Of a stretch of 64,000 bases of DNA, positions 26,316-59,609 are shown piece by piece. Source of the stretch: Gammaproteobacteria bacterium (lineage in GTDB: Bacteria > Pseudomonadota > Gammaproteobacteria > Burkholderiales > SHXO01); NCBI GenBank assembly GCA_041488355.1, contig JBGPPC010000001.1, positions 1,758 through 65,757 on the forward strand, read 5' to 3'. Both the position numbers and the translations under genes were made by a program. Position 1 is the first letter of the stretch, and each line of letters opens with the position of its first letter. A model generated the notes under the pieces. The model saw only the letters and a list, made by a program, of their open reading frames with translations, was not told the DNA's origin and did not search any database.

Positions 26316-26321
26316 CTGGGA

Positions 26322-33730: not shown

Positions 33731-34240
33731 ATGACACGCAAAGCATTTATCGTCGCGGCGATGCTGTGGCTGTTCGCAGCTGCCGGCGCGCAGGCTCAGA
33801 CTCAAACGATGGATATCAAGGTGCTGACATTGGAAGGCGCACGGACCGTCATCGCCGGCGCGTTCGAAGAAGCACGGCGTGTCAAAGCGCCGGGTGGCGC
33901 CATTGCGGTCGTGGACGAGGGTGGCCACATCCTTGCGGTGGAGCGCTGGGATAATACATTCCCGGCGGCGGCCCAGATTTCCATCGGCAAAGCGCGCACC
34001 GCTGCGCTGTTCCGCAAGCAGACCAAGGCTTTCGAGGATGCCATCAACAACGGCCGGTTCGCCATGACCGCTCTGCCAGACACGGTGCTGACGCCGCTTC
34101 AAGGTGGTCTGCCCATCGTGATCGATGGGAAAGTGGTGGGCGCGGTAGGCATGAGCGGCGCCGCCAGTGCGCAGCAGGACGAGGAGCTGGCCATGGCCGG
34201 CATCAAGGCCCTGCAAGAAACGGTGGGAGCGGAAAAATGA
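33731..34240 (+). CDS. GlcG/HbpS-like (DUF336) haem-binding protein, secreted
   Basis: 169 aa with a signal peptide. GGAIAVVDEGGHILAVERWD...QISIGKARTAALF...GGLPIVIDGKVVGAVGMSG is the GlcG signature pattern. Confidence 0.8.
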   Translation: MTRKAFIVAAMLWLFAAAGAQAQTQTMDIKVLTLEGARTVIAGAFEEARRVKAPGGAIAVVDEGGHILAVERWDNTFPAAAQISIGKARTAALFRKQTKAFEDAINNGRFAMTALPDTVLTPLQGGLPIVIDGKVVGAVGMSGAASAQQDEELAMAGIKALQETVGAEK

Positions 34241-38900: not shown

Positions 38901-41900
38901 GGATCGAGTCCTGCAGCGGCATGCGCCAGAGGCTGATGGCCCAGGCAAACATCATCAGCACGCGCGCGCGCAGAGCCCGGTGTTCGAAGCGCTCGTTCAC
39001 GCGGATTGCGAGCTTGCCGAAGGCGTAGGCGGCCTCGAAATCCTCCCGCACCGGACCCAGGAACATGGCGGCAAACAGCACATACGCGTAGGCCGAGTCC
39101 TCCATGTTCCCGTGCTCTAGGCACAGGCGCACCATGGTGGCGGTATTGAGGAGGGTCAGCGTCTTATCGCCCGACAAATAACAGGGCGTGTGAAGGTTGG
39201 CCAGCAGCTTGAGCACCGAGCGCTGCTCCGGGTCGCGCATCGGCGGCAGGTCGATTAGCGACTCGATGCTACGCACGCCGATCAGAGACTCGATGATTGC
39301 GACCTCGCGGTCGAGCGCATTCTGTCTCGCCTCCGGCGCGTCGGGGAAGGTAATGTCGAACAGCGCCAATCCGTCGTGGCCGGTGCGGATCGCATCTGCG
39401 TAGCGCGACAGGCTTTCGTATTGAAGCACCCGCAGATCGTGCACGCTGGCTCGGTCCAGGCGGCCGTGCGCTTGCTGCAGCAGCAGGCTAAAAGAATCCT
39501 GCGCCTCTCCGAACTGCCCGCAGAGATACTGGCATTCCGCGAGCTCGAGATATAGCGGGAACGCTATCGAGTAGTCACGGCTCCAGGGCTCTGCCGGCAG
39601 CAGCGCCCGCGCAGCGGTGAAATAGGCCAACGCCGCCGGAAAAGCTGCGGATGCTTTCGCCTTTCTCCCGGCGGCACACGCCATCTCTGCGATGCGCAGC
39701 CGCTCATCGGCAGCCTCGATCAGCTCGCTGCCGTAGCAGAGGTGGTTCACGATGTGGAACAGCTTGTCCTCGCGCTCCGGCACGCTGAGGTGCTGCCACA
39801 TCAGACGGCCGACTTGCAGATGCAGCTCGCGTTTGCGTTCGTCGGGGATGAGCGCATACGCGGCCTGCTGCACCCGGTCGTGGAGAAAGCGGTAGTGCTC
39901 CTCCGCAGTCTCTACCTGGGGCGCAATGTCCTCCTCATCTGGCTCCTGACGGCGGCCAAGCGGCAGGATCAATCCCTCGCGCAGCGCGGGCCACAGATCC
40001 TGAGCCGTCTCACGGACCGGCACTTGTCGGGCGAGAGCCAATGTCTTCAAGGCGAACTCGTTGCCCACGCACGCTGCCAGCATCAAGGCCTGGCGCGCTG
40101 CCTGCGGGAGCCGCTGAATGCGGCCCGCCATGAGTGTGACCACGTTGTCGGTCATGCCGGTCTGCTCGATGCGCTCGACATCGAAGCGCCACCGGCCCGC
40201 CGCATGATCGAACCTGACCAGCTGATCCTGATGCAGGGACTTCAGGAACTGAATGACGAACAGGGGATTGCCGTCGGTCTTCTGCTGCACCAACCGAGCC
40301 AGCGACTCGACATCGGCCGGCTCACAGCCCATGGCGTCGGCGATGAGACGGTTCAGCTCTTCAAGTGGCAGAGGCAGCACCTCGATGCGGCTCACGGCGT
40401 CTGGCCGCGTTCCAATCAGCGCTACCGTTTCCAGCAAAGGGTGGCCGGCGGGGACTTCGTTGTCGCGAAACGCCCCGACCACCAGCAGGTGCTGTATCGC
40501 CCGCTGCGACACAATCGTTTCGAGCAGCTTGAGCGTGGCAGGATCGGCCCACTGTAGGTCGTCCAGAAACAGCACCAGCGGATGGTGCTCCTGTGTGAAC
40601 ACCCGGACGAAGCGCTCGAACACCAGATCGAACCGGTTCTGCGACTCCATCGGCGGCAGCTTCGGCAGCGCCGGCTGGACTCCGATGATCAGCCCGACCT
40701 CAGGGATCACCTCAACGATGACCTGTCCGTTCGGACCGAGCGCCTCCAGCAACCTGATGCGCCAAGCGGCGACCTCGTCCTCACTCTGCGTGAGCAACTG
40801 CTCGATCAGCTGCTGGAAGGCCTGCGCTACGGAGCTGTAGGGCACGTTGCGCTTGAGCTGGTCGAACTTGCCGGTGATGAACAGGCCCCCCTCACGCGTG
40901 ACGGGCCCGCGTACCTCGTTCACCAGGGCCGATTTGCCCACGCCCGAGAACCCCGAAACGAGCAGCAGCTCGCACGTGCCCTGCCGGGCTCGCTCGCAGG
41001 CCGCCAGCAGTCGCGCGATCTCGGGCTCGCGGCCGTACAACCGCCGCGTCGGCTGCAGGCTGCCGCGCGCATCGTGGCGCCCGAGATCGAGCGTCTCAAT
41101 CGTGCCTGTGGAGCGCCACTGCGACAGGCAAGCCTGCAGGTCGGCCTCGAGTCCGTGCGCGCTCTGATAGCGCGCCTCGGCGGTCTTGGCCAGCAGCTTC
41201 ACGACAATGTTCGAGATGGGGAGGGGAATGGCGGGATCCACCTGGCCTGGCGGCGTCAGCGCTCGGGCGATGTGGGAATGCACCAGCTCCAGGGGATCGG
41301 TGGACAGGAACGGCGCCTTTCCCGTCAGCAGCTCATATAGCACCACGCCGAGCGAGTAGAGATCGGTCCGGTGATCGAGGGCTCGATTCACTCGTCCTGT
41401 CTGCTCGGGCGCCATATAGACGAGGGAGCCTTCCGTCGGTGGCGACTGACTCTCACCGCTCCCGTCCAGCGCAGGCTGGCGCGCCAGAGACAGGTCGATC
41501 AGCTGCACGCGCAGCGTCTCCGGCTCCACCAGAAAGCTGTCCGGGCTGACGTTGCAGTGGATGATTCCGGAATCGTGCAGCGCCCTCAACGTTCCCGTGA
41601 CGCGAATCGCGAGCTCCAGAAAGGTCGCCGGCTCGCGCGAGCCGATCCCTATCCAATTCCGGAGCGGCTCGCCGCCGCCGTCATCCAACACCAGCACAAG
41701 GCCGTGGAAGGATTTCTCCAGAGCGCTGCCGGTCGCACCGGAGCTTGGAGCCAACAGGTGCATCAACTCCCGTTCCCGCCGCAGCGAGGCTAGATCGGCA
41801 GCGGACGGAAATTCGCGCGGCAGTGCCTTGAGCAGGACCGGCCGATCGTCCTCGACGCGGCGGGCGCGGTAGACGACGTGCGTGGCCGTCCGCAGGACGA

Positions 41901-41955
41901 GCCGATCGACCCGATAGCCCGGTGGCAGCGCGAGCCTGTGCAGTGCTTCACTCAT
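35911..41955 (-). CDS. 2014-aa multidomain sensor: degenerate Ser/Thr-kinase-like domain, AAA_16/STAND P-loop NTPase, TPR-like region, GAF, PAS, HisKA/HATPase and receiver
   Basis: Motifs in order: kinase-like VLLKAL..IIHCNVSPDSF..LIDLS..YMAPEQ; Walker A GFSGVGKS and LVLFLDDLQWAD; GAF; PAS (DAIFVCDLEDRVTYWNKGAERLYGW); H-box GIAHDLNNILTPI; N/G boxes (LNARDAM, DTGAGI, GKGTGLGLS); receiver (VLVVDDE..VLTDWMMP..LPKPY). Confidence 0.9.
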   Translation of the reverse strand: MSEALHRLALPPGYRVDRLVLRTATHVVYRARRVEDDRPVLLKALPREFPSAADLASLRRERELMHLLAPSSGATGSALEKSFHGLVLVLDDGGGEPLRNWIGIGSREPATFLELAIRVTGTLRALHDSGIIHCNVSPDSFLVEPETLRVQLIDLSLARQPALDGSGESQSPPTEGSLVYMAPEQTGRVNRALDHRTDLYSLGVVLYELLTGKAPFLSTDPLELVHSHIARALTPPGQVDPAIPLPISNIVVKLLAKTAEARYQSAHGLEADLQACLSQWRSTGTIETLDLGRHDARGSLQPTRRLYGREPEIARLLAACERARQGTCELLLVSGFSGVGKSALVNEVRGPVTREGGLFITGKFDQLKRNVPYSSVAQAFQQLIEQLLTQSEDEVAAWRIRLLEALGPNGQVIVEVIPEVGLIIGVQPALPKLPPMESQNRFDLVFERFVRVFTQEHHPLVLFLDDLQWADPATLKLLETIVSQRAIQHLLVVGAFRDNEVPAGHPLLETVALIGTRPDAVSRIEVLPLPLEELNRLIADAMGCEPADVESLARLVQQKTDGNPLFVIQFLKSLHQDQLVRFDHAAGRWRFDVERIEQTGMTDNVVTLMAGRIQRLPQAARQALMLAACVGNEFALKTLALARQVPVRETAQDLWPALREGLILPLGRRQEPDEEDIAPQVETAEEHYRFLHDRVQQAAYALIPDERKRELHLQVGRLMWQHLSVPEREDKLFHIVNHLCYGSELIEAADERLRIAEMACAAGRKAKASAAFPAALAYFTAARALLPAEPWSRDYSIAFPLYLELAECQYLCGQFGEAQDSFSLLLQQAHGRLDRASVHDLRVLQYESLSRYADAIRTGHDGLALFDITFPDAPEARQNALDREVAIIESLIGVRSIESLIDLPPMRDPEQRSVLKLLANLHTPCYLSGDKTLTLLNTATMVRLCLEHGNMEDSAYAYVLFAAMFLGPVREDFEAAYAFGKLAIRVNERFEHRALRARVLMMFAWAISLWRMPLQDSIPITREAFRLGNETGLFVDAAYALFNEIWFALLSGSDLDKFCATYPANVDYMNRVKMHHFAGGQQVILQWGRALNGLTVGPTTFTDDSFDEERYLQTYRGHSLFEMFYFVAKLAVLYTFGDYPGACAAACEARRVIRDFPGTIWDELTVFYHALSLTACYRSLPEAERKAADATLENCALRLQHWAENSPHLFRAQHLIVSAELARIHDDATAALGLYEAAIEFAAGQECSREAGLASELYARFWEDRKQDQIAALFIAQAYQCYRQWGAWAKVRQLEQRYAQGQPQPLEDQPRYGLSADSPDSSLPPAGAQSSALDITAVLKAAQAISREIVLEKLLQSLMRTVLESAGASRGALVLEKNGQWVIEAEGAANEDGARVLQSIPVESSERLSGGIVNYVRRTCQAVVIDDAEHDERFARDPYVVGKRAKSILCVPILNQGKLTAILFLENDLTAGAFTPKRLEIIQILSSTIAVSIENARLYVDMEQEVAERKRAEQQVRDQAMLLDKAGDAIFVCDLEDRVTYWNKGAERLYGWPAHQALGRPLPEVVIIDGGSDRNEEATRSVLQRGEWTGEINQRTRGGEDVIVQSRWTLVRSATGQPASVLMINTDITEKKRMEEHFLRAQRMESIGTLAGGIAHDLNNILTPIILAADTLQGNRHAQMNPQLLDMIQVNARRGAEIASQVLAFARGVEGKRLTLDPRHLLEEIGQIARQTFPRAIEIQIDSPAPIWPVAGDPTQLHQVLLNLALNARDAMPHGGTLRFSAQNFSVDEHYARLYPDAVPGRYVLVSVSDTGAGIAPQLIGRVFEPFFTTKEIGKGTGLGLSIVAGIVRSHGGFVNVWSEPGRGSRFEIHLPALASAEVSDTEPRSELPEGHGEHVLVVDDEASVLEVTRTTLEAHGYRVTTAQDGTEALAEYARLGNVMDIVLTDWMMPYMDGAATIRALQKLNPEVRVVVCSGLHASGNAPEFSGLPVAGFLPKPYTAQRLLTTLREVLQHH

Positions 41956-43258
41956 CGAGCGGTACCCAGCGCGTGCCGTCGAATCGGACCATGCGCGTTT
42001 GCTCGATCGGCAGATAGTCCGTCGGGCTGGTGTTGATCTTGATCCCCGGCAGCAGCATCGGCAGCTCGAGGTCCTTCAGATTCGCCGCCTGGCGCATGAC
42101 GTTCTCGCGGGTGAGATCGCTGCCGCAGCGCTCGAGGACATGGACCATGAGCTGCGCCGCCGAATAGCCGTATACATTTTGGATCTCGTCGACGTCGCCG
42201 TCCGCGAAGTACTGCGCCATCCAGGCCAGGTAATCCCGCACGACGCGGTCGTCCTTCCAGCGTGGGTCCGTTGGGCTTTTCCAATAGGCATCGGCGATCA
42301 ATCCCACGGATTTGCTCAAACCTGCCGGCTTGAGCACCGTGGCGATGGACGCAACCGCGCTCGGAACGAAATGCTGCGGCCTCCAGCCCACATCATAAAC
42401 CTTGCGTATCGCTTGAGAGGCAAACCTGGCGGTGGAGAAATTGAAGAACGTGTCCGCGCCCGAGGCCTGGAGCGAAATGATCTGCGAGTCCACCGTCGGA
42501 TCGCTGGTCTCGTAGGAAGCGGCCGCGACGATCATCTTGTCGGCCCTCTCGCCGAGCAGATCCTTCAGGGCCATCAAGTACTCCGTCCCGTAGTCCGTGT
42601 TTTCGTAGAGGACGGCGATCTTGGCGTTGGGGCGATGTTTCAACAGGTACCCCACCTCGTCGGCGATGTTGGTCCTTTGGTTCGGGGCCAGCGCCATGGT
42701 CCAGGGGAAGTTCTGCGGGTCGTGCCATTTCATGCCGGTGCTGGCGATGAACAGCTGGGGCACCTTGTTGGCGTTGAGATACTTGTGCACGGCCGCGTTT
42801 GGACTGGTACCGAGCGAGCTGAATAGGAGCAGCACCTGCTCTTGCTCGACCAACCTACGCGTATGCTCCACCGTCTTCGGGGGGCTGTATCCGTCGTCGA
42901 GCGAGATCAGCTTGATCCGCCGCCCGTTGATCCCCCCTTCGGCATTTACTTTGGCGAAGTAGGCCGCTTCCGCCTTGCCGATCGTTCCGTAGGGTGAGGC
43001 CGGACCGCTGTAGGCCATCGTCTGGCCGATCTTGATTTCCGAATCGGTTACACCCGGACCGTAATTATTTGCCGCCAGCACCGGCGCAAAACAGATACCG
43101 ACGCCGAGCACCGTCGCTCCCAGCACGGCCGGGAATCTCTCCCGGAATACTGTCCTCGTCGTCTCCGGTGTTCTCTCGGCGGCGGCTCGTCGGGCGGGAT
43201 CCTGGCTGTCCGGGCTCGGCATGGGACACTCAGCGCGTTGGGGGTGACCGGATCTCAT
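41948..43258 (-). CDS. LivK-type (branched-chain amino acid family) periplasmic binding protein, with no cognate transporter genes nearby
   Basis: The signal/anchor is VLGATVLGVGICFAPVLAANNYGP, followed by IKIGQTMAYSGPASPYGTIGKAEAAYFAKVNAEGGINGRRIKL. Its stop overlaps the sensor start (ATGAGTGA). The true start may be ATG 43222. Confidence 0.85.
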   Translation of the reverse strand: MRSGHPQRAECPMPSPDSQDPARRAAAERTPETTRTVFRERFPAVLGATVLGVGICFAPVLAANNYGPGVTDSEIKIGQTMAYSGPASPYGTIGKAEAAYFAKVNAEGGINGRRIKLISLDDGYSPPKTVEHTRRLVEQEQVLLLFSSLGTSPNAAVHKYLNANKVPQLFIASTGMKWHDPQNFPWTMALAPNQRTNIADEVGYLLKHRPNAKIAVLYENTDYGTEYLMALKDLLGERADKMIVAAASYETSDPTVDSQIISLQASGADTFFNFSTARFASQAIRKVYDVGWRPQHFVPSAVASIATVLKPAGLSKSVGLIADAYWKSPTDPRWKDDRVVRDYLAWMAQYFADGDVDEIQNVYGYSAAQLMVHVLERCGSDLTRENVMRQAANLKDLELPMLLPGIKINTSPTDYLPIEQTRMVRFDGTRWVPLDE

Positions 43259-43340
43259 TCAGCCAGCCGATGCGTTGGCAGCCGCGGCCGGTTTGATGGC
43301 CGATCGCAATACTGTCGATCCTGGTTAGAAAACCTTACGC

Positions 43341-43364
43341 AGTGCGTGAGACTTGCGTGACACT
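43341..43364 (-). promoter_or_regulatory. Tandem 11-bp direct repeat upstream of the binding-protein/sensor operon
   Basis: In operon orientation the sequence is AGTGTCACGCA AGTCTCACGCA CT, about 85-105 nt upstream of ATG 43258. Helical-turn spacing is typical of winged-helix response-regulator sites. Confidence 0.3.
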
Positions 43365-43469
43365 TGGCTGGCAAAGTGTACGCGTGTGCGGTGGATAACC
43401 GCCAGCCAACATAGTCTCCTCCCCTTCTGGATGGGCCGCGGGTCGTGGGATCCCCCCATCCACCTTCTT

Positions 43470-43682
43470 TCATGGCGATGTACGGAACCGAGCCGCGGAT
43501 GGACTCATGCTTCCAGCGGAGGTTTCACCCTCCTCATCCAATGTGACAATCGCGTTGAGGGCGGGGTTACGGCTGCGGATGCGTTCGAGATGTCCGTCCA
43601 CCACTTCGCATGCTGAAAGATTGCGCTGCCGGATGGCCGCGGCAAGCTCGTATACGAACGGGTAGACGGGCTTCTGCATCAC
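43470..43682 (-). pseudogene. N-terminal fragment of an amidase-signature enzyme
   Basis: ELAAAIRQRNLSACEVVDGHLERIRSRNPALNAIVTLDEEG matches the N-terminus of amidase (GatA-like) family proteins. Similarity then stops, and only ~70 codons are present. Confidence 0.5.
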
Positions 43683-43864
43683 GAACCTCTGCTCGTGTCA
43701 TCGCGCCACCGCCAGCCCAGCCGCTACGGTGAGCGGCAGCGCCCCTTTGCTGGGTCGCGACAGGGTGGGTCTGACCCTGCGGGAGTATACGCTCGCGTCC
43801 GGATGTGATGCCCTGACGCAGCGCCGCTCACCTACTTCTTTCTTTATCTCGTCGTGAAGGTTCC

Positions 43865-44122
43865 GTGATAACCGGCGCCGATACTGCGTCTCGTACGATC
43901 ACTTCAACCCAACAGGGGACGAACATGACGACGGCGACCTTCGCTAGCAACGTGATACCCCACCCCGCTCGGGGCGGCAGCCGGTCCGGCGCGGCATTGC
44001 GCTCTTTGATGCAATCCTGGGAGCAGGAAATACCGGCAGACGAGGAGGAAAGCGAGACCGAATTGATGGTGCTTCTGTCCGGGATGGTGAGCCCGGAGAT
44101 CAGCTTGCTAGGCGACGCATGA
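43865..44122 (+). CDS. Hypothetical small acidic protein (weak call)
   Basis: 85-aa ORF with an internal ATG at MTTATF. No motif recognised and no Cys. Confidence 0.25.
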   Translation: MITGADTASRTITSTQQGTNMTTATFASNVIPHPARGGSRSGAALRSLMQSWEQEIPADEEESETELMVLLSGMVSPEISLLGDA

Positions 44123-44334
44123 CGGGGCAACCATGGGCGGCGTGCAGGTGCACGCCCCCGCCCCTCTCCCGCAAGGGGAGCGGGGTGCCTCTCCCGAGGG
44201 AGAAAGCAGGTGTAGGCCACGTGCGATGCGCCCAGCAAACCGTTAGCCCCGCGTGACCATTTTGTGATTTCTCCCGGCCAGACTCCACTTGTCATCAGAG
44301 ACGCATCGCGTCCGCCAGATGAGAGGAGCCGAGG

Positions 44335-45207
44335 ATGGAGAACGCCCCCCGTCGTCCCGCTAGAGCCGAGCTGCCGCCCCGTGCCGGCATCGGGCTGCGC
44401 GCGCCGCACTATCGCGAGATCCTCGAGACCCGGCCGGATATCGGTTGGGTCGAGGTCCACAGCGAAAACTACTTCGGCCGCGGCGGGCAGCCCCTTCACT
44501 ATCTGGAGCGCGCACGCTGCCACTATCCGCTAAGCCTGCACGGCGTAGGGTTGTCGCTGGGTTCGGCCGACGGCTTGCGTCAAGCGCACTTGGTGCAGCT
44601 CAAGGCACTGGTCGAGCGCTTCGAACCAGCGCTCGTCTCCGACCATCTGTGCTGGGGCGCGATCGGCGAACGGCATCTGAACGACCTGCTGCCGCTGCCC
44701 TGTACGGAGGCAACGCTCGATCTGGTCTGCGTCAATGTGGTGCGAGCGCAGGAGTTTCTGGGTCGGCAAATCCTCGTCGAGAACGTCTCCAGCTACCTTC
44801 AATTTTCCGACTCTACTATCCCTGAGTGGGAGTTCGTGGGCGAGGTCGCCCGGCGTACCGGCTGCGGTCTGCTGCTCGATATCAATAATATTTATGTCAG
44901 CGCCATCAATCACGGCTTCGACGCGCTGCGTTATCTCGATGCGATTCCGGCGCACGCGGTGCGCGAGATTCATCTCGCAGGCTTCGACAGCAACGGCATG
45001 TGCCTCATCGACACGCATGGCAAACCGGTTGCCGGTCCGGTATGGAACCTCTACGGCGAGGCGCTGACCCGGCTCGGCCCGGTCCCTACTTTGATCGAAT
45101 GGGATACGGACTTGCCTCCGCTCGCGGTCCTGCTGCAAGAGGCCGCCAAGGCTCAGGAGATCTTGAATCAGTGGACACTGGAGACGACCCATGCTCTCGC
45201 TGCGTGA
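44335..45207 (+). CDS. bufB: DUF692 / MNIO-family (multinuclear non-haem iron oxidative) peptide-modifying enzyme
   Basis: 290 aa with a TIM-barrel DUF692 pattern and metal-ligand motifs HSENYF, HGVGLSLG, SDHLCW, ENVSSY, LLDINNIYV and EIHLAGF. GAGGAG lies upstream. Confidence 0.9.
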   Translation: MENAPRRPARAELPPRAGIGLRAPHYREILETRPDIGWVEVHSENYFGRGGQPLHYLERARCHYPLSLHGVGLSLGSADGLRQAHLVQLKALVERFEPALVSDHLCWGAIGERHLNDLLPLPCTEATLDLVCVNVVRAQEFLGRQILVENVSSYLQFSDSTIPEWEFVGEVARRTGCGLLLDINNIYVSAINHGFDALRYLDAIPAHAVREIHLAGFDSNGMCLIDTHGKPVAGPVWNLYGEALTRLGPVPTLIEWDTDLPPLAVLLQEAAKAQEILNQWTLETTHALAA

Positions 45208-45979
45208 GCAGCAGGCGGGCTTCGCGGCCGCTCTTTTCAATCCTGCCGCCGGCCGGTCGGCGCCAGGCATTCGCGCCGATGGCATCAGCCCCGCGGTGAG
45301 GCTCGGCTTTTACCGCACCAACGTATTCGAGAACTACCGCAAAGCCCTGGCAGCGACGTATCCCGCGGTGGAGAAACTGGTAGGGAGTGGGTTCTTCGCC
45401 GGCTTGGCTGAAGAGTACATCCGTCGCTATCCCTCGCACTCGGGCGATGTGGGCCGACACGGCGAGCAGTTTGGAGAATTCCTGCGCCGGCACGCTTGTG
45501 CACGCGAGTTGCCTTATCTCTCGGATGTCGCGCGCCTCGAATGGAACATCGACGAAAGTTTCAACGAAGCGGACCACGCGCCGCTTGCGCTCGAGCGGCT
45601 CGCCAACGTTCCAGAGGGGCAGCATGAGCGGCTGCGCTTCCTCCTCGCTCCGTCCTGCCGCCTGATGAGCTCGCTCTTCCCAGTGCATCGCATTTGGCAG
45701 ATGTGTCAGCCGGATTCCGACGGTGACGGCAACGTCGATCTAGGCCAGGGTGGCGCTGACTTATTGGTTCGCCGCCACGGATTTCACGTGATGGTTGAGA
45801 CCGTGCAGCCTAGCGAGTTCGCAATGCTGGTAGCGCTGTCTACCGGTCACGATTTCGCCGAAGCCTACGACATTGCGCACGGTGTGGACGGAGGCTTCGA
45901 TCCGGACACGTTTCTCCAGAAGCACGTGCTGTCCGGAGTCTTGGTAGATTTCATTCTGCCGGCTGACGCGTGGGTGTAG
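45191..45979 (+). CDS. bufC: DUF2063 protein (MNIO partner / precursor-recognition subunit)
   Basis: 262 aa. LGFYRTNVFENYRKALAATYPAVEKLVG..FFAGLAEEYIRRYPS..LSDVARLEWNIDESF is typical of DUF2063. It overlaps the DUF692 gene by 17 nt. Confidence 0.88.
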   Translation: MLSLREQQAGFAAALFNPAAGRSAPGIRADGISPAVRLGFYRTNVFENYRKALAATYPAVEKLVGSGFFAGLAEEYIRRYPSHSGDVGRHGEQFGEFLRRHACARELPYLSDVARLEWNIDESFNEADHAPLALERLANVPEGQHERLRFLLAPSCRLMSSLFPVHRIWQMCQPDSDGDGNVDLGQGGADLLVRRHGFHVMVETVQPSEFAMLVALSTGHDFAEAYDIAHGVDGGFDPDTFLQKHVLSGVLVDFILPADAWV

Positions 45980-46234
45980 TGGACGACCATTCTCGCGTTG
46001 CTCCGGTGTCGGAGCGCTCCATTTATGCTTCGACTCCGCGATGAAGCCGCTACGCTCAGCACGAACCGGGCGGGGTCGGCGGGTGATTTCACTGCTGTTT
46101 CTCCTCTCCTACCACCCGTGAGCAAAGCTTTAGCCTCCCGTGAGGTTTGCGTGATGTTTGATCTCGATACTGCACGCATCCGGAAAGCGACAAGCGCCCC
46201 GGTGATTCCCCAATCCAACCTTACGGAGACTGTC

Positions 46235-46525
46235 ATGAGCAAGACCAATTCGATCATCAATACCGCCTTCGCCAGCTTGTTGGCTGTGGGCTTGGCCGCC
46301 GGCGCCTCGCAGGCACTCGCCGCCAAGGGCGACAACGAGAAATGCGCCGGCATCGTCAAGGCCGGCAAGAACGATTGCGGCACCAGCAAGAACGCGTGCG
46401 CGGGCCAGGTGAACATGGACAAAGATGCCGAAGCCTGGATCTACGTCCCCAAAGGCACGTGCGAGCGCATCGTCGGAGGCCACATCCAGACCTCGTCCGA
46501 CGCCAAGCACGGCGGCAAGAGCTGA
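46235..46525 (+). CDS. bufA: DUF2282-type Sec-exported 4-Cys precursor (bufferin-like)
   Basis: GGAG lies 7 nt upstream. Signal peptide is MSKTNSIINTAFASLLAVGLAAGASQALA. The core is [25 protein letters not shown]...WIYVPKGTCERIVGG. The 175-aa track ORF from 45998 is an upstream over-extension. Confidence 0.88.
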   Translation: MSKTNSIINTAFASLLAVGLAAGASQALAAKGDNEKCAGIVKAGKNDCGTSKNACAGQVNMDKDAEAWIYVPKGTCERIVGGHIQTSSDAKHGGKS

Positions 46526-46692
46526 TCAGGAAAACAATCGGGACGGTCCGTCGCTTTGCATCGGACTCGCCCGTCTTACCCGCCCGGACGTCCGGCAGGA
46601 AGCGCAGCCGCCGGCACACGCAGCGTAAGCCACCCGGCCCCTCGCTTCCGCAGACGCCCGAGCCTCGTTCAAGGGAAATCGAAATGGAAATG

Positions 46693-47166
46693 ACCGTCAG
46701 TTCCACGCGCGCGCTGAATGCCGGGCAGCTGGTCCTTGCCGCAGCTCGTCGCCTCATCACGATCGCCGAGCAGTACGCGGCGCCCGTCCTCGACTTGATT
46801 ATCCGGATCTGGGTGGCCAAGGCGTTCTTTTTGTCCGGGCTGACCAAGATCCAGAGCTGGGACAGCACGCTGGCGCTGTTCGGGAACGAATATGCAGTGC
46901 CGCTGCTGCCGCCCGAGCTCGCGGCATATATGGGCACGTTCACGGAGCTGTTCTTCCCGGTGCTGCTGGTGCTGGGGCTCGGCACGCGCTTCGCGGCCGG
47001 CGTGCTGTTCGTGTTCAACATCATCGCCGTGATCTCCTACCCTGACCTGGGTGAGGTCGGGCTGAGGGACCATCAGTACTGGGGGCTGTTGCTGCTGATC
47101 CCGCTGCTGCACGGGCCGGGAAAAATCTCCGTCGATCACTTCGTCCGCCGCCGCTTCTGGAATTGA
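46693..47166 (+). CDS. DoxX family membrane protein
   Basis: 157 aa with four hydrophobic spans. VLDLIIRIWVAKAFFLSGLTKIQSW...LGLGTRFAAG is the DoxX pattern. It follows the precursor gene. Confidence 0.85.
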   Translation, partial: TVSSTRALNAGQLVLAAARRLITIAEQYAAPVLDLIIRIWVAKAFFLSGLTKIQSWDSTLALFGNEYAVPLLPPELAAYMGTFTELFFPVLLVLGLGTRFAAGVLFVFNIIAVISYPDLGEVGLRDHQYWGLLLLIPLLHGPGKISVDHFVRRRFWN

Positions 47167-47191
47167 GCCGCGCAAAACAAGGAAAGCCCAT

Positions 47192-48031
47192 ATGAACGCA
47201 GTCAACACAATGGATCGCACGGCCATGACTCTGCGAGTTCTCGAAGGTCAGCGGGCGGTGGTTACCGGCGCGAACTCTGGGATCGGAGAGGGCGTCGCGA
47301 AGGGTCTGGCCGACGCCGGTGCAAAGGTCATCGTCAACTACGTCAGCGCACCGGAGCAGGCCGAGCGGGTCGTCAACGAAATACGCCAGGCGGGCGGCGA
47401 GGCCATCGCCATCCGCGCCGACGTCAGCAAAGAGGAACAGGTCCAAGCCATGTTCCGGCAGGCGATCGAAGCCTGGGGCAGCATCGACATCCTGGTGAAC
47501 AACGCCGGGCTGCAACGCGATGCGCCGCTGCACGAGATGAGCCTGAAGGACTGGCAATTCGTGCTGGACGTGAACCTCACCGGCCAGTTTCTGTGCGCCC
47601 GTGAGGCGGTGCGCGAGTTCCGCCGCCGCGGGGTCCAGCCCGAGCTGTCGGCCGCTGCCGGCAAGATCGTCTGCATGTCCTCGGTGCACGACATGATCCC
47701 CTGGTCAGGCCATGCGAACTACGCGGCGTCGAAGGGCGGTGTGTCGATGCTGATGAAGACCATGGCGCAGGAGCTGGCGATGCACAAGATTCGCGTCAAC
47801 GCCGTGTCCCCGGGTGCGATCAAGACTCCGATCAACACCAGCGCGTGGGACACACCGGAAGCCGAACGGGAACTGCTCAAGCTCATCCCCTATTACCGGG
47901 TGGGCGAAACGCACGACATCGCACGCGCGACGGTGTGGCTGGCTTCGGACCTGTCGGACTACGTGAACGGCGCCACGCTGTATGTGGACGGCGGGATGAC
48001 GCTGTTCCCGGAATTCCGCGGGAATGGCTAA
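47192..48031 (+). CDS. SDR family oxidoreductase (glucose-1-dehydrogenase-like)
   Basis: TGANSGIG cofactor motif, NNAG, and a catalytic Ser (MSSVH) with YAASK. It begins 26 nt after the DoxX stop. Confidence 0.9.
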   Translation: MNAVNTMDRTAMTLRVLEGQRAVVTGANSGIGEGVAKGLADAGAKVIVNYVSAPEQAERVVNEIRQAGGEAIAIRADVSKEEQVQAMFRQAIEAWGSIDILVNNAGLQRDAPLHEMSLKDWQFVLDVNLTGQFLCAREAVREFRRRGVQPELSAAAGKIVCMSSVHDMIPWSGHANYAASKGGVSMLMKTMAQELAMHKIRVNAVSPGAIKTPINTSAWDTPEAERELLKLIPYYRVGETHDIARATVWLASDLSDYVNGATLYVDGGMTLFPEFRGNG

Positions 48032-48040
48032 CGAAAGGCC

Positions 48041-48156
48041 GTGACTCGTGGTTCGTGACCGGTAACCCCCCCGACCCTCCCCTTGAAGGGAAGGGAGCGC
48101 CGAGAGCTCACGTCACGAATTGCGAATCACGAGTAACGAATCACGAATCACGCCGG
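48041..48156. repeat. Heptamer-based inverted-repeat element, copy 1
   Basis: The left arm has phased ACTCGTG GTTCGTG. The centre is a GC hairpin (CCCTCCCCTTGAAGGGAAGGGAG). The right arm has phased CACGAAT TGCGAAT CACGAGT AACGAAT CACGAAT CACGCC and ends at the ribosome-binding site of the next gene. Confidence 0.8.
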
Positions 48157-48163
48157 AGGAACC

Positions 48164-49183
48164 ATGTTCCGACTTCGCATCCGCCCCGACCAGTTCATGC
48201 TTCTGGTCGTCGCACTGTCCCTTTCGCTGCTGGCCAGCACCGTGTTTGCCGGAGCGCGCGAGATCCGCGGCTTCGCACTTACGGTCTCCAATCTGGACAG
48301 CGCCGTCGCCTTTTACCAGGAGGCGCTCGGTTTCAAGAAGGTCGGCGAACGCATCGTCGCCGACCGCAACTACGACTATCTAACCGGCGTGTTCGGCACG
48401 CGCGTTCGCAGTGCGACACTACAGCTCGGAGACGAGCGGATCGAACTCGACCAGTACCTCGCACCCGGCGGTCAGCCCATCCCCGTCGACAGCCGCTCGA
48501 ACGATCTCTGGTTCCAGCACTTCGCTGTCGTCGTGAGCGACATGGAGCGGGCCTACGAGCATCTGCGCGCGTTTCCGATCCAGAGCATCTCCAGCGCGCC
48601 GCAGACCATTCCCGAATCGAACAAAGCCGCGGCCGGCATCAAAGCGTACAAGTTCAAGGATCCCGACGGTCATCCGCTCGAGCTGCTTTGGTTCCCGGCT
48701 GACAAGGGCAAGGCCAAGTGGCAAAGCGCCGATGGCCGGCTGTTCCTGGGTATCGACCACTCGGCGATCGGCATCTCCAGCACGGAGCGCAGCACCGCGT
48801 TCTACCGAGACCTGATCGGCCTCACCGTCGCCGGCGGCACCACTAATACCGGCATGACTCAAGAGCAGCTCGACAACGCGTTCGGCGCAGTGGTGCGCAT
48901 CACCGGACTGCGACCCGACCGCTCCGAGAGTCCTGGACTCGAGTTCCTGCAGTACGTGAACCCGCCAGGCGGGCGGCCATCGCCAATCGCGTTGCGGCCC
49001 AACGACCTGGTTCTTACTCGAACCGTGATTCAAGTGGACGACCTCGATGGCTTGGTAACGAAGCTGCAAGGCGGCGGCGTGACCTTCATTTCGCCCCAGG
49101 TCGTCTCAGTAAGCGGTGAGCCGTGGACCAAGGCGCTGATGGTGAAAGACCCGGACGGCCACGCGGTGCTGCTGGTTGAATGA
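48164..49183 (+). CDS. Secreted two-domain VOC (glyoxalase/bleomycin-resistance/dioxygenase) family protein
   Basis: 339 aa with a signal peptide and two VOC modules (GFALTVSNLDSAVAFYQEALGF and GIDHSAIGISSTERSTAFYRDLIGL). Confidence 0.8.
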   Translation: MFRLRIRPDQFMLLVVALSLSLLASTVFAGAREIRGFALTVSNLDSAVAFYQEALGFKKVGERIVADRNYDYLTGVFGTRVRSATLQLGDERIELDQYLAPGGQPIPVDSRSNDLWFQHFAVVVSDMERAYEHLRAFPIQSISSAPQTIPESNKAAAGIKAYKFKDPDGHPLELLWFPADKGKAKWQSADGRLFLGIDHSAIGISSTERSTAFYRDLIGLTVAGGTTNTGMTQEQLDNAFGAVVRITGLRPDRSESPGLEFLQYVNPPGGRPSPIALRPNDLVLTRTVIQVDDLDGLVTKLQGGGVTFISPQVVSVSGEPWTKALMVKDPDGHAVLLVE

Positions 49184-49234
49184 CAGCGCGCGAACGGCAT
49201 TTTAGAAGCCTGCTAAACCAATCAGGAGCGGCAG

Positions 49235-50695
49235 ATGAAATACGACGTGATCATCGTCGGCTCGGGCGCCGGCGGATCGGCAGCGGCCTATCACTTGACC
49301 CAGACCGGGAAGAAGGTGCTGCTGCTCGAGAAGGGATTGCCGTTGCCGCGAGACGGGAGCACCCTCGATGTAGACACCGTCATGCGGCGTGGTGCCTATC
49401 TCAGCAAGGAGCCTTGGGTGGACCGCGCCGGCAAGCAGGTCGTTCCCGAAGAGCATTTCAACCTGGGCGGCAAGACGAAATGGTACGGTGCTGCCCTGCT
49501 GCGCTTCGCGCGGCACGAGTTCGAGGCCGATCCCGCCCATCAGTGCCGATCCTGGCCTATCGGTTACGACGAGCTCGCGCCGTTCTACGATGAGGCCGAG
49601 GAGCTGCTCGGCGTACGTCCTTTCGCCGTCGAGCCAAACCTGCAAGAGTTGGTCTCCGGCTTGCGCGGGATCGATGCCAGTTGGGAGAAGCACATCCTCA
49701 ATGTGGGCCTGTCGCCGGACATCCTGAGCTATCCGGAGGAGGCCAGCCGCTTCGACGGCTTCGCCTCCGTACGTGGATTGAAGAGCGACGCCGAGAAGTG
49801 CCTGCTGGATCGCGTGCGCGGCAAGCCCAACCTCACCATCGCGACCGGCAAGGCAGTCCGTGCACTGAAGGCAGGTGCGGGTAGCCCGACCCGTCTCGCG
49901 GGCGTAGAGTGCGAGGACGGTTCGCGCTATGAGGCCGACACGGTGATGCTCGCGGCCGGAGCCCTCCACAGTCCGCGGCTACTTCAGAGATATCTGGAGC
50001 AGACTGGACTGGCAGATGCGCTGCCTGCCTATCGAAACGTAGGACGCAACTACAAGTTTCATGTGCTTACCGCGCTGCTCGCGTTTTCGCATCGCAAGAT
50101 CACCGACGTGCTGAGCAAGACCCTGCTGCTCACGCACGAAGCATTTCCACACAGCACCGTGCAGACGCTGGGCGGAAATCTGACGCGTCAGATCGTGCTC
50201 ACGCAGGCGCCGGCTTTTGTGCCCAGTGTGCTGATCGAGCCGTTCGCACAGCGCGCGGTCGGGCTGTTCCTGCAGACCGAGGATGGTTCGCACCCCGACC
50301 AGCGCGTGGTCGCAACGGCAGGCTCGCCGCCGCGCATCGATAACGATCCGGCGCGGCTGCCGACCGCGCACGCAGAGCATCGGCAGCTCACGCGCACGCT
50401 GCGTGGTCAGTTGGCGCGTCTCGGCTACCTGCCTGTGACGAAAGCCATCCCGCTGTCCGGGACTGCGCATGCCTGCGGCACCCTGATCGCGGGCAACGAT
50501 TCCTCCAGCTCTGTCGTCGATGCGGAAGGGCGGGTGCATGGGCTTGAGAACGTCTACGTGGTGGACGGCAGCGTGCTGCCGCGCTCCAGCCGCGTGAACC
50601 CCGCCCTCACCATCTACGCTTGGGCGCTGCGAGTTGCGAGCCGGATCGAGTCGCCGCGCGCGCCCGCACGCGTCGCTGAAGCGGCAACGATCTGA
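49235..50695 (+). CDS. GMC family FAD-dependent oxidoreductase
   Basis: N-terminal YDVIIVGSGAGGSAAAY FAD motif, and a GMC C-terminal region (GTAHACGT, VYVVDGSVLP). Confidence 0.88.
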   Translation: MKYDVIIVGSGAGGSAAAYHLTQTGKKVLLLEKGLPLPRDGSTLDVDTVMRRGAYLSKEPWVDRAGKQVVPEEHFNLGGKTKWYGAALLRFARHEFEADPAHQCRSWPIGYDELAPFYDEAEELLGVRPFAVEPNLQELVSGLRGIDASWEKHILNVGLSPDILSYPEEASRFDGFASVRGLKSDAEKCLLDRVRGKPNLTIATGKAVRALKAGAGSPTRLAGVECEDGSRYEADTVMLAAGALHSPRLLQRYLEQTGLADALPAYRNVGRNYKFHVLTALLAFSHRKITDVLSKTLLLTHEAFPHSTVQTLGGNLTRQIVLTQAPAFVPSVLIEPFAQRAVGLFLQTEDGSHPDQRVVATAGSPPRIDNDPARLPTAHAEHRQLTRTLRGQLARLGYLPVTKAIPLSGTAHACGTLIAGNDSSSSVVDAEGRVHGLENVYVVDGSVLPRSSRVNPALTIYAWALRVASRIESPRAPARVAEAATI

Positions 50696-50738
50696 AGCAG
50701 TGAACCTACGGCGCAGCCGCAAAACTGGAGGCCAAGGT

Positions 50739-52826
50739 ATGGAGACCAAACTGCCGGATCTGATCCGTTTCGGACGCGAGATATGCGGCGACCTGGCTCA
50801 GGCCGAACGCCGTGAATGGTGGTTGGCCAACGGTTTGGGCGGCTATGCCTCGGGCACCATCGCCGGGACGCTTACGCGGCGCTATCACGGCTTGCTGGTT
50901 GCGCCGGTGAAGCCGCCGCTCGACCGCCACGTTGTGATGGCGAAAGCAGATGCGACGTTGGTCTCAGGCGAACGCTCCTGGCCCCTGTTCTCCAACCGTT
51001 GGAGTGGCGGTGCGGTCGATCCGACCGGCTATCTCGCGATCGAAACGTTTCAGCTCGACGGCCGCATTCCGGTGTGGCGCCATGCCTGCGGCGAGCTGCG
51101 GGTCGAAAGCCGCATCTGGATGGAGCACGGCGAGAACACGACGTATGTCGGCTGGCGTGTTGCCGCCGGCTCACCGGTCCCCGACGAGCCGCCACGGCTC
51201 CGCGTCAAGCTGCTGGTCAACGCTCGCGACTTCCACGGCACCGCCCGGCCCTGGGAGTTCAACCCCGTCATCGAAGGCTCGGGGCCGGACCTGCGCGTGA
51301 TCCATCCGAACTGGTTCACGCTCTACATCAAAGCGCGAGGTGGCGCCATCGCCACTCGCCACGACTGGTTCGAGAACTTCGATCTATCGGTGGAGCGCGA
51401 GCGCGGCCTGTCCGACCGCGACAGTCATCTTTGCGTAGGCGAAGCCGAGCTCACGCTGCATCCGGGTGAGTGGGTGGGGGTCGTGGCGAGCCTCAATCCG
51501 CAGCCTTCGGTGTATTTCGACGAAGCCCTGCGTCGCGCGCAGGCCCGCGACCTAGGGCAGCTGCGCCGCACGCAGGTTCAGGTGCCCGAGTTGATCGGCG
51601 CGCCCGCCTGGGTCGACCAGCTGATTCTCGCTGCCGACAGCTTCGTTTTCTCACGTCCGCTCCCCGACGTCCCCGACGGCGAGTCGATCATCGCCGGCTA
51701 TCCGTGGTTCGGCGACTGGGGCCGCGACACCATGATCGCGTTGCCCGGCCTTACGCTGGCTACCGGCCGCTACGACACGGCGCGCCGAATCCTGCAGACG
51801 TTCGCCCGCTTCGTCGATCAGGGCATGCTGCCCAACGTCTTCCCCGGCGTTGGCGACAAGCCCGAGTACAACACGGTGGACGCAGCGCTGTGGTTCATCG
51901 AAGCCTGGCGCGCTTACGTCGCAGGCATCGATGACCGCGAGTGCCTGAGTCAGGCGTTCCCCGTGCTCCAGTCCATCATCGACTGGCACGTCAAGGGCAC
52001 GCGCTACAGCATCGGCATGGATCCCGCGGACGGGTTGCTCCGCGCCGGTGCACCCGGTGTGCAACTCACCTGGATGGATGCGAAGGTCGGCGAGTGGGTG
52101 GTGACGCCGCGGATAGGTAAGCCGGTGGAGATCAACGCGCTGTGGTTCAACGCGCTGTCCGTGATGGCGCAGTTCGCTGAGATGCTGAAGCGGCCGTCGA
52201 AGCCTTACGTGGATCTGGCAGCACGAGCGCGCGCTGGCTTTCAGCGCTTCCTCAACCCCGCCGGCGGATTGTTCGACGTGCTGGATACCCCGGAAGGGGC
52301 CGACGCGACCGTGCGCCCCAACCAGATCTTCGCCGTCAGCCTCCCGTTCAGTCCGCTCGATCGCGAGTGCCAGACGAAGGTCGTACGCGCCTGCGGGCGC
52401 GAACTGCTCACCTCGTATGGGTTGCGCAGCCTGAGCCCATCCGACCGCAACTTCCATCCGTATTACACGGGTGGCGTCTGGGAGCGCGACGGCGGCTACC
52501 ACCAGGGGCCCGTATGGGCGTTCCTGCTCGGGCACTACGCGCTGGCCGAGTATCGGATCACGGGCGATGCAGCAATGGCCCAAGCGCGCCTCGATCCGCT
52601 GCGCGACCACCTGTTGGATGCGGCTTTGGGCAGCGTGAGCGAGATCTTCGACGGCGCTCCGCCGCACTCCCCGCGGGGCGCGCCGTCTCAGGCGTGGTCG
52701 GTCGCGTGCACGCTCGAAGCGTGGTGGCGGCTGGAGAAGGCGAAACGGGATACCAAACCAGTAGACAGCGATGCTGCACACACTAGCCGCAAGAAGTCAG
52801 AGACAAGAAAACGCGCCACGGCCTGA
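50739..52826 (+). CDS. Glycogen-debranching-enzyme-like amylo-alpha-1,6-glucosidase family protein
   Basis: The N-terminus is EWWLANGLGGYASGTIAGTLTRRYHGLLVAP. The (alpha/alpha)6 catalytic region has GYPWFGDWGRDTMIALPGL, LTWMDAKV and HQGPVWAFLLG. Start at ATG 50739. Confidence 0.85.
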   Translation: METKLPDLIRFGREICGDLAQAERREWWLANGLGGYASGTIAGTLTRRYHGLLVAPVKPPLDRHVVMAKADATLVSGERSWPLFSNRWSGGAVDPTGYLAIETFQLDGRIPVWRHACGELRVESRIWMEHGENTTYVGWRVAAGSPVPDEPPRLRVKLLVNARDFHGTARPWEFNPVIEGSGPDLRVIHPNWFTLYIKARGGAIATRHDWFENFDLSVERERGLSDRDSHLCVGEAELTLHPGEWVGVVASLNPQPSVYFDEALRRAQARDLGQLRRTQVQVPELIGAPAWVDQLILAADSFVFSRPLPDVPDGESIIAGYPWFGDWGRDTMIALPGLTLATGRYDTARRILQTFARFVDQGMLPNVFPGVGDKPEYNTVDAALWFIEAWRAYVAGIDDRECLSQAFPVLQSIIDWHVKGTRYSIGMDPADGLLRAGAPGVQLTWMDAKVGEWVVTPRIGKPVEINALWFNALSVMAQFAEMLKRPSKPYVDLAARARAGFQRFLNPAGGLFDVLDTPEGADATVRPNQIFAVSLPFSPLDRECQTKVVRACGRELLTSYGLRSLSPSDRNFHPYYTGGVWERDGGYHQGPVWAFLLGHYALAEYRITGDAAMAQARLDPLRDHLLDAALGSVSEIFDGAPPHSPRGAPSQAWSVACTLEAWWRLEKAKRDTKPVDSDAAHTSRKKSETRKRATA

Positions 52827-52851
52827 GCGGTTACACGATCCGGAGTGAACC

Positions 52852-55601
<2,750 letters not shown>

Positions 55602-55605
<4 letters not shown>

Positions 55606-56480
55606 AGAGCGCAACCGCGACCACGGGCCCAGCCGCGCCGGTCGAGAGCCGCGTTGCTGCGCGCTCGGCGGTGCGTGCGCTTGCAAGCCACTGGCCCGAG
55701 TACCTCATGGAAGCGGCCGGCCTCGGATTGTTCATGATCTCCGCGTGCGCGTTCACCGTGCTACTCGAGCATCCCGGCTCGCCGTTCCATCAGGCATTGC
55801 CCGATCCCTGGCTGCGGCGCCTGGTGATCGGCGTCGCCATGGGGCTCACGGCGATCTCGATTATCTATTCGCCGATGGGCAAACGTTCGGGCGCGCACCT
55901 CAATCCCGCAGTGACGCTCACCTTCCTGTGCCTGCGCAAGATCGAAACGTGGGACGCCGTTTTCTACGTGCTGGCGCAGTTCGTCGGCGGAGCGCTCGGC
56001 GTGATGCTGGCCGCCCATGTCCTCGGTGCAATGCTGGTCGGCGACGCCGCGGTCAACTACGCGGTGACGCTTCCGGGCGAACCGGGGCGCTGGATTGCTT
56101 TTGCTGCCGAGATGGCTCTCTCCTTCGGCCTGATGTTGCTCGTGCTCAATATCTCGAACCGCCCATCGCTCAACCGCTATACGGGTCTGTTCGCGGGCGC
56201 CCTGATTGCGGTGTACATCACGGTCGAGGCGCCCCTGTCCGGAATGAGCATGAACCCGGCGCGCACCGTGGCTTCGGCGCTGCCGGCGCAGGTATGGACC
56301 GACGTGTGGATCTATGTCCTCGCGCCACCGCTGGGGATGTTGCTGGCGGCGCAGACCTATTTGTTGACGCGTGGGCCGGGCACCGTCCTATGCTGCAAGC
56401 TGCATCACGAGAACAACAGCCGTTGCATCTTCCGCTGCCGCTATCACGAGTGCGCGGACCACTCGGCCACGCGGGTGTAA
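55602..56480 (+). CDS. MIP/aquaporin family channel with a Cys/His-rich C-terminal tail
   Basis: Two NPA boxes (HLNPAVT, SMNPART) and six hydrophobic spans. The tail is CCKLHHENNSRCIFRCRYHECADH. Its GTG start overlaps the glucosidase stop. Confidence 0.88.
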
Positions 56481-56514
56481 GGCGCTCGACATTCGACCGA
56501 CCTAGGGAGCAAGC

Positions 56515-59602: not shown

Positions 59603-59609
59603 TCTTCGG

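Follow-up and report, generated by a model that had tools for sequence, protein, structure and literature searches.

A predicted Buf1-type bufferin locus with a split gene order and a repeated promoter element in a Burkholderiales genome

The stretch analysed here, a window of 64,000 nucleotides from a Gammaproteobacteria bacterium of the order Burkholderiales (assembly GCA_041488355.1, contig JBGPPC010000001.1), carries four co-directional genes of a predicted bufferin system: bufB for the MNIO (DUF692) maturase, bufC for its DUF2063 partner, bufA for the DUF2282 precursor and doxX for a membrane protein. An earlier reading of the locus from its letters alone (the sequence-only reading) had given the coordinates and lengths of these genes, the 17-nt overlap of bufB and bufC, the 255-nt gap between bufC and bufA (45980-46234) and the spacing C-x10-C-x6-C-x20-C of the BufA cysteines (residues 37, 48, 55 and 76), and all of these proved correct. 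Its naming of the four proteins as MNIO, DUF2063, DUF2282 and DoxX is confirmed by profile searches, in which BufB passed its equivalog cut-off and the Pfam thresholds were passed as well (Table 1).

BufB scores 393 bits against the NCBIfam model NF050167 (MNIO_BufB equivalog, cut-off 310) and covers 262 of its 262 positions, while the ApyH model gives it just 83 bits. The nearest solved structure is 3BWW, an HvfB-like protein, and the metal-ligand His/Asp/Glu positions of BufB line up with this solved MNIO at the level of the alignment, as opposed to a residue-by-residue ligand list. The models for HvfB, HvfC and HvfX all score under their cut-offs, the sub-threshold value of HvfC for BufC being 47 bits. 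The partner protein of Buf1 clusters has a DUF2063 domain and a C-terminal RRE-like domain and is encoded directly after the MNIO; in BufC the N-terminal DUF2063 domain is present and its gene takes that position, and a PDB sequence search with BufC returned no match. BufA has the traits of a Buf1 precursor, namely a DUF2282 domain, a length of 80-120 aa, four conserved cysteines and a Sec signal peptide, the last called by eye from an N-terminus that reads ...ASQALA/AKGD. The open reading frame (ORF) of doxX spans 46342-47166; its likely start is the ATG at 46684, giving a protein of 160 aa, compared with 155-163 aa in relatives, and the gene directly follows bufA, as it always does in the relatives; a DoxX gene is frequent in Buf1 clusters. 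The window holds one MNIO/DUF2063 pair only. Judged by these family assignments, the locus encodes a genuine Buf1-type bufferin (captophorin) system, a known class of peptides that are made on ribosomes and modified after translation (RiPPs).

Table 1. Features of the window discussed in the text, with the bufferin locus first and the upstream and downstream features after it.
Feature	Position	Strand	Size, content and support
Promoter element P2	43843-43885	+	boxes TTTA 43843, GTGA 43854, GTGA 43865; -10 GATACT 43880-43885
sORF, small acidic protein	43925-44122	+	65 aa; no Cys, no signal peptide; first cistron before bufB
Three GC-rich hairpins, sORF-bufB spacer	44135-44205	+	fold of 44115-44340, z -3.2 vs shuffles
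bufB, MNIO (DUF692) maturase	44335-45207	+	290 aa; PF05114, E 3.9e-110
bufC, DUF2063 partner (PME type 1)	45191-45979	+	262 aa; PF09836, E 7e-21
Promoter element P3	46118-46171	+	boxes GTGA 46118, TTTA 46129, GTGA 46140, GTGA 46151; -10 GATACT 46166-46171
bufA, DUF2282 bufferin precursor	46235-46525	+	96 aa; PF10048, E 1e-22
doxX (bufD-like) membrane protein	46684-47166	+	160 aa; PF07681, E 6e-18
Promoter element P1	32860-32913	+	boxes GGGA 32860, TTGA 32871, GTGA 32882, GTGA 32893; -10-like AACAAT 32908-32913
Short BufA2-like lipoprotein	33026-33238	+	70 aa; FMAGC as lipobox, plus three more Cys in a KCYGANACKGHG...C motif
BufA1', second DUF2282 precursor paralog	33334-33633	+	99 aa; PF10048, E 4e-19; Cys 40, 51, 58, 79
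HbpS-like gene	33731-34240	+	Pfam PF03928; signal-peptide-like N-terminus
SMP-30/gluconolactonase-like (SGL) gene	34237-35874	+	Pfam PF08450; signal-peptide-like N-terminus
Block separating the modules	35911-43700	-	2014-aa kinase, periplasmic binding protein PF13458, amidase fragment
Amidase-like N-terminal fragment	43470-43682		70 aa
SDR (glucose-1-dehydrogenase-like), two-domain VOC/glyoxalase protein, GMC oxidoreductase	47192-50695	+	Pfam and NCBIfam
DoxX/type-II NADH dehydrogenase (NDH-2) fusion	56515-58737	+	740 aa; Pfam DoxX, Pyr_redox_2 and NDH2_C
OmpR/PhoB-family response regulator	58745-59518	+	Pfam; 70% identical to pair member in relatives
HAMP histidine kinase	59610-61121	+	Pfam; 46-50% identical to kinase in relatives
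Two PAS-GAF proteins	61118-62287, 62394-63662	+	Pfam PAS_3 and GAF; hydrophobic N-termini

The locus departs from this class in the position of its precursor gene. The order bufABC (precursor, MNIO, partner) has been described as strictly conserved, and candidate precursors have been taken only from Cys-containing ORFs preceding the MNIO gene (PMC12452194, the supplementary tables of which are accession lists without gene-order data). In the window the order is sORF-B-C-A-D, where sORF is a small open reading frame for an acidic protein that fills the precursor slot. We retrieved 59 species-representative genome loci with BufB relatives (numbered with the prefix L) and mapped their genes by tblastn. 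The order B-C...A-D is present in ~20 of the 59 and on metagenome contigs long enough to display order; with intact ORFs it recurs in dozens of loci, to ~60% BufB identity, across genera and classes. B-C-A-D followed by genes for a short-chain dehydrogenase/reductase (SDR), a VOC protein in some cases, a GMC oxidoreductase and a debranching enzyme (GDE) is the layout of L002, L005-L008, L026 and L030, which include three Candidatus Accumulibacter species. An opposite-strand two-component system stands between B-C and A-D in L011, L013, L014, L016, L019-L023 and L037 (Aromatoleum, Azotobacter, Paraburkholderia, Burkholderia). B-C is found alone in L004 and L009, and L003 has B-C-D with A elsewhere. 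The canonical A-B-C-D occurs in L010, L017, L018, L024, L027 and others, L017 retaining the same doxX-SDR-GMC-GDE flank, and the more distant loci hold Buf2-type A2-B2-C2 clusters.

A neighbor-joining tree of BufB places the split-order loci essentially in one clade, beside the canonical L010, L017 and L018; its members are Accumulibacter, Paraburkholderia, Azotobacter, Aromatoleum and many uncultured Betaproteobacteria. The split B-C-A-D order is thus a clade character and not a one-off, and the synteny comparison that had been proposed as a check finds the B-C-A order kept across this one clade of relatives. A corresponding tree of the DUF2282 family puts the downstream BufA together with its upstream counterparts at the canonical loci L017, L018 and L010. 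By this grouping the downstream bufA is the ortholog of the canonical upstream precursor, so that the cognate precursor itself has moved, in agreement with the sequence-only reading, which had the precursor relocated behind the modification genes. No description of the split order was found in the literature searched. The best match to BufB in the genome collection (93% identity) lies on a 3-kb contig binned as Phycisphaerae (L001, DASXUA010000754.1); this contig is probably mis-binned, since all other relatives are Betaproteobacteria or Gammaproteobacteria.

Alignment of the regions upstream of bufA in the Betaproteobacteria-type loci, together with inspection of the Paraburkholderia, Aromatoleum and Azotobacter loci, reveals a conserved element in which GTGA-type boxes, four at most, recur every 11 bp and are followed after ~11 nt by GATACT, CATACT or CACACT. 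The window has three copies (P1-P3), each on the correct strand and 40-110 nt ahead of a bufferin-related start codon. P1 precedes an operon for a lipoprotein and a second DUF2282 protein 11 kb upstream, P2 precedes sORF-bufB-bufC, and P3 lies 64-117 nt upstream of bufA. Scanning both strands of the window for the four-box pattern gave two sites, P1 among them (~0.1 in shuffles), and the two-box-plus-(-10) pattern gave three in the same 128 kb (0.03 from shuffles); the bufA site was found by construction, as the pattern was derived from it, and P1 and P2 are independent finds.

The element is also seen in relatives. In L065 the ortholog of the lipoprotein gene has an equivalent of P1 upstream, and the ortholog of P2 is located 60-190 nt upstream of sORF or bufB in L002-L004, L006-L009, L011, L030, L037, L063-L065 and many metagenome loci. 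P3 is kept upstream of bufA in the split-layout loci examined, bar L006 and L030, where the site is ~595 nt upstream, before an extra gene. This gene, between bufC and bufA (L006 11711-12178, L030 11701-12207), encodes a secreted protein in which 'SP[FY].SLGGIGG' is repeated four to five times, and has its own copy of the repeat element. Within 1.03 Mb of related loci, 33 of the 48 sites are at most 250 nt upstream of sORF, bufB, bufA or the lipoprotein gene, and no site precedes bufA or bufB of any canonical-order locus. The consensus was built from 96 distinct sites. Boxes R1 and R2, which lie outside the search pattern and were not used in site selection, are 60-97% conserved among them (for example, T at -10 in 93/96, A at -8 in 91/96 and the R1 GTGA in 61-72/96). 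The conserved repeat-plus-(-10) element upstream of bufA supports a promoter of its own for the precursor gene, as had been suggested before. A search of 43200-47300 against Rfam (E <= 1) gave only a sub-threshold sbcD match (24 bits vs 40), hence no riboswitch or small RNA, and the RNA fold of the bufA-doxX spacer is no more stable than shuffles (z -0.17).

At the promoters of OmpR/PhoB-family activators, direct repeats replace the -35 hexamer, the pho box of PhoB being the textbook case. The elements of the window resemble such promoters in that their tandem repeats are ~11 bp (one helical turn) apart and end ~10 nt before the -10, with no good -35; they differ in the GTGA-type box and in the presence of up to four repeats, both specific to the clade. 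An OmpR/PhoB-family response regulator and a HAMP histidine kinase are encoded in the window. The orthologous pair is found between bufC and bufA, divergent from bufA, in L013, L016 and L037, and in Paraburkholderia, Aromatoleum and Azotobacter the repeats occupy the spacer common to bufA and the divergent pair. It abuts the sORF-bufBC unit in L004 and L009 and is upstream in L007 and L008. On account of this co-occurrence and of the usual geometry of OmpR/PhoB sites, the regulator of the window most likely binds the GTGA repeats of P1-P3. By curated models this candidate differs from PhoB, CopR and CusR. The literature, searched for two-component systems tied to DUF2282/DUF692 clusters, yielded nothing relevant, the Legionella GIG paper concerning LetA/S only.

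Genes around the regulator recur near bufferin genes too. In L003-L009, L013, L026 and L030, orthologs of the two PAS-GAF proteins are encoded beside bufB or beside the two-component genes. The DoxX/NDH-2 fusion gene is situated just ahead of the two-component genes, and stand-alone NDH-2-like ORFs (called by eye from an N-terminal dinucleotide-binding motif) come after doxX in L013 and have a copy of the promoter element in L037 (19186). No extracytoplasmic function (ECF) sigma/anti-sigma gene was found among the ORFs scanned with Pfam and NCBIfam (41.9-50.7 kb, part of 33-36 kb and 55.6-63.7 kb), and the statement that no such pair sits beside the locus therefore stands for these regions.

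The explanation that we regard as the best, and as probable, is a Buf1-type bufferin system with a clade-specific split layout under the control of the repeat element. The characterised model for its chemistry is the Caulobacter system (PMC11626156). BufA1 acquires two -4 Da thiooxazole modifications, for which BufB and BufC are both required and together suffice, whereas DoxX can be dispensed with; bufferins give protection from copper (PMC11626156, PMC12452194). By analogy, BufB and BufC of the window would convert the two central cysteines of BufA, Cys48 and Cys55, to 5-thiooxazoles in the cytoplasm, and the Sec signal peptide would then deliver the modified protein to the periplasm, where a Cys37-Cys76 disulfide would form and BufA would chelate copper; DoxX would be an accessory membrane protein not needed for modification. 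The predicted transcription units are sORF-bufB-bufC, bufA-doxX (possibly on into the SDR gene) and, 11 kb upstream, the genes for the lipoprotein, BufA1', the HbpS-like protein and SGL. A single bufABCD operon under an ECF sigma factor would thus be replaced by separate units, each behind a repeat element, which the OmpR-type system, with its kinase and PAS-GAF partners, would co-induce through the GTGA repeats. Such units would allow independent levels of precursor and enzymes, with co-induction retained.

Compared with canonical Buf1 clusters, the locus shares the DUF2282 precursor with Sec signal and four cysteines, the BufB-type MNIO, the DUF2063 partner, DoxX and the operon-like overlap of bufB and bufC. 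It differs in the division into B-C and A-D, in the direct-repeat elements and OmpR-type system in place of a SigF/NrsF-type ECF pair (none in the scanned regions), in the small acidic ORF before bufB, and in the extra precursor paralogs under the same element. The HvfABC (oxazolin of Haemophilus influenzae) and FonABC (fontiphorin) systems, also captophorins, likewise pair an MNIO with a DUF2063 partner, in their case a DUF2063/RRE protein, and the two form 5-thiooxazoles on cysteines of a secreted copper-binding peptide (PMC13097082), and the structure closest to BufB is of HvfB type. Here, however, the precursor is a folded DUF2282 protein and not an EGKCG-repeat peptide, and the Hvf models stay below their cut-offs.

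Several observations weigh against this explanation or parts of it. A simple sigma-70 consensus scan of 43.2-48.2 kb found no promoter, and no terminator is present between bufC and bufA, so that read-through from the first operon is possible. The sample of loci was seeded with the BufB of the window and is biased toward its relatives; the trees are neighbor-joining trees without support values, and in that of BufB the canonical-order L058 nests within the split clade. The link of regulator and repeats is one of guilt by association, and the regulator gene is 12 kb from the bufferin genes of the window. Regulator and kinase score 181.6 bits (cut-off 279, TIGR01387) and 168 bits (292.6, TIGR01386), under the thresholds of the heavy-metal CopR/CusR and CopS subfamilies, and the inducing signal therefore need not be copper. 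Finally, the chemistry rests on homology.

The small ORF in the precursor slot directly follows P2 and has a Shine-Dalgarno-like AGGGGA upstream. Between the window and L065 its differences number 11, 2 and 17 at codon positions 1, 2 and 3; given this dominance of the third position, the sORF behaves as a coding sequence. Its signature is ALRSLM..WE, an acidic linker, ESE[TV][ED]LM[VI].LSGMV and a short variable acidic tail, with the invariant motif ...ESETELMVLLSGMV. In the AlphaFold2 model (mean pLDDT 67, pTM 0.34) the N-terminus is disordered and the remainder is predicted as a helical hairpin. Seventy-two homologs had been called previously as hypothetical genes, none of them with a Pfam or NCBIfam family, and a profile search of 1.84 billion proteins returned just 68 clusters at 50% identity. 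A second type of small acidic ORF (...IERDGMI...) fills the same slot in L004-L006, L009 and L030. Profile-profile comparison of this type with the ELMVLLSGMV type of the window gave a probability of 5%, with homology not shown, and the IERDGMI type was not seen in the sORF profile search (0 among the 25 of 68 matches read).

Linkage of the sORF to the maturase gene is frequent and loose. Among 46 informative metagenome loci, bufB is closely downstream in 28 (within 350 nt in 25, at 0.9-1.6 kb in three), and the remaining 18 have no bufB downstream; several stand-alone copies, such as those of L067, L074 and L097, retain the promoter element. In L054 (8127-9493), L067 (10013-10444), L068 and L116 the sORF is divergent from a full Buf2-type A2-B2-C2 cluster, in which a full-length lipoprotein leads its own MNIO-DUF2063 pair. 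L054 and L067 also have bufB remnants after the sORF; in these two, the maturase genes behind the sORF have apparently been lost to decay, with sORF and promoter retained. We read the sORF as a member of the P1-P3 regulon that in many loci, but not in all, heads the bufBC operon as its first cistron. As a RiPP precursor it makes a poor candidate, having no Cys, no downstream bufB in these 18 loci and a C-terminal tail that varies in length and sequence.

A further suggestion, which we think unlikely, is that the sORF protein is a dedicated new component of bufferin biogenesis or control in the split clade. It might act as a BufB/BufC adaptor or holdase that keeps the separately expressed Sec-targeted precursors cytoplasmic until they are modified, or as a connector exerting feedback on the OmpR-type two-component system. 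In that case the sORF protein, together with the split layout and the four-box element, would mark a regulatory and biosynthetic subtype of bufferin systems not described before, present in Paraburkholderia, Azotobacter, Aromatoleum and Accumulibacter. The spacer between sORF and bufB holds the hairpins listed in Table 1, which have no U-tract and no Rfam family. Its sequence is unique within the window, and in relatives no more than 27-70 nt stand at the equivalent place; the spacer may serve as an mRNA stabiliser or an attenuator, or may be an insert of REP type.

The unit behind P1 contributes the extra precursor paralogs. BufA1' is 54% identical to BufA and belongs to a separate paralog clade of the DUF2282 tree, which travels with the HbpS-like and SGL genes. 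The 70-aa lipoprotein is a shortened relative of the Buf2-type (BUF_6/12Cys) lipoprotein precursors: it is 52% identical to that of L054, scores 47 bits with the NCBIfam BufA2 model (cut-off 60) and, relative to the full-length 89-aa proteins of L067 and L068, has 19 internal residues gone and 3 of 6 core cysteines kept. Unlike Buf2 clusters, the window lacks a second MNIO/DUF2063 pair, so these extra precursors, if modified, would use BufB and BufC. In L063, L064, L066, L101 and L102 the BufA1'/HbpS/SGL module is immediately upstream of the sORF-bufBC unit, and in L122, L075 and L084 the SGL end, the only part visible, directly precedes the sORF. Because the module is contiguous with the sORF in these relatives, the 8-kb block that parts them in the window is probably an insertion or a rearrangement; by eye, its 2014-aa protein combines kinase, AAA, GAF, PAS, histidine-kinase and receiver domains. 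Elsewhere in the window, 18975-28641 has a GC content of 0.57 (0.62-0.67 in the rest) and recombinase-like and transposase-like ORFs, and is probably a mobile island.

Downstream of doxX, the SDR, VOC and GMC genes are followed by those for a debranching-enzyme-like protein and a GH63/MGH1-like glycosidase. The cluster might exceed the bufferin, with the SDR, a secreted VOC protein (its N-terminus is signal-peptide-like), the GMC oxidoreductase and the glycosidases as tailoring or partner enzymes transcribed from the bufA promoter. The SDR gene does follow doxX closely, starting at 47192 after a spacer of 25 nt and not the 26 nt given earlier, and the genes of 46235-63662 are all co-directional with short spacers. 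The doxX-SDR-(VOC)-GMC-GDE block is kept in Betaproteobacteria-type loci whatever the position of bufA, and an SDR gene follows doxX in Paraburkholderia-type loci too; there, however, the three neighbours as a set are not syntenic with doxX. In Paraburkholderia, Azotobacter and Aromatoleum the VOC and GMC genes are absent and the SDR is only ~30% identical. The ~70% nucleotide identity of the block may reflect shared descent only, the glucose-1-dehydrogenase-like SDR and the debranching-enzyme-like and GH63/MGH1-like genes point to sugar or compatible-solute metabolism, and it is reported that bufferin clusters very rarely contain further conserved genes (PMC12452194). We therefore regard an enlarged cluster as improbable and the SDR, VOC, GMC and glycosidase genes as probable bystanders.

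The layout could also mean that BufB and BufC have switched substrate, the Cys-less sORF being the real MNIO substrate and bufA-doxX an independent orphan module next door. The sORF does sit exactly in the precursor position and in many loci is closely coupled to bufB, 27-70 nt away, and L004, L009 and L106 have only a small ORF, bufB and bufC with no bufA nearby. MNIOs acting on non-Cys residues are known (C-terminal Asp and Phe; PMC12452194), and since published precursor searches demanded Cys, such a substrate would have been missed. Yet BufB passes the BufB equivalog cut-off and stays low with the ApyH model, BufB and the downstream BufA co-diverge as a cognate pair, 18 of the 46 informative sORF loci are without a downstream bufB, with the promoter element kept in several, the conserved part of the sORF is the predicted helical hairpin, its variable tail does not look like a modification site, and no homology to it could be demonstrated for the small ORFs of the second type. 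With linkage this loose and a tail this variable, the sORF is largely rejected as a new Cys-less MNIO substrate, and the switch itself is very improbable. Hardly credible, in turn, is an accidental order, the product of a one-off translocation or of a degenerating cluster, with no functional meaning. Signs of rearrangement and decay are at hand in the 8-kb block beside the amidase fragment, the internal deletion of the BufA2-like lipoprotein and the bufB remnants of some relatives, but the comparative data already contradict this explanation: the same order is maintained with intact ORFs across genera and classes, and a dedicated promoter element is conserved before bufA.

Descriptions of bufferins (captophorins) place them among the largest RiPP families and name them a copper defence of wide distribution. 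The class is already known and the chemistry expected of the present system is unchanged, with no pointer to new chemistry; the new parts are the split architecture, the regulatory element and the small protein family, a family without annotation that is tied to bufferin clusters. Genome mining assumes that the precursor lies ahead of the MNIO gene and contains Cys. A whole clade that includes cultivable genera breaks the rule of order, and in mining a split locus can be entered as two things, an 'MNIO without precursor' and an 'orphan precursor'. A group of soil and wastewater bacteria has this layout in common, and for them one defined DNA element, with a response regulator as its candidate partner, makes up a testable regulon, distinct from the known control by ECF sigma factors.

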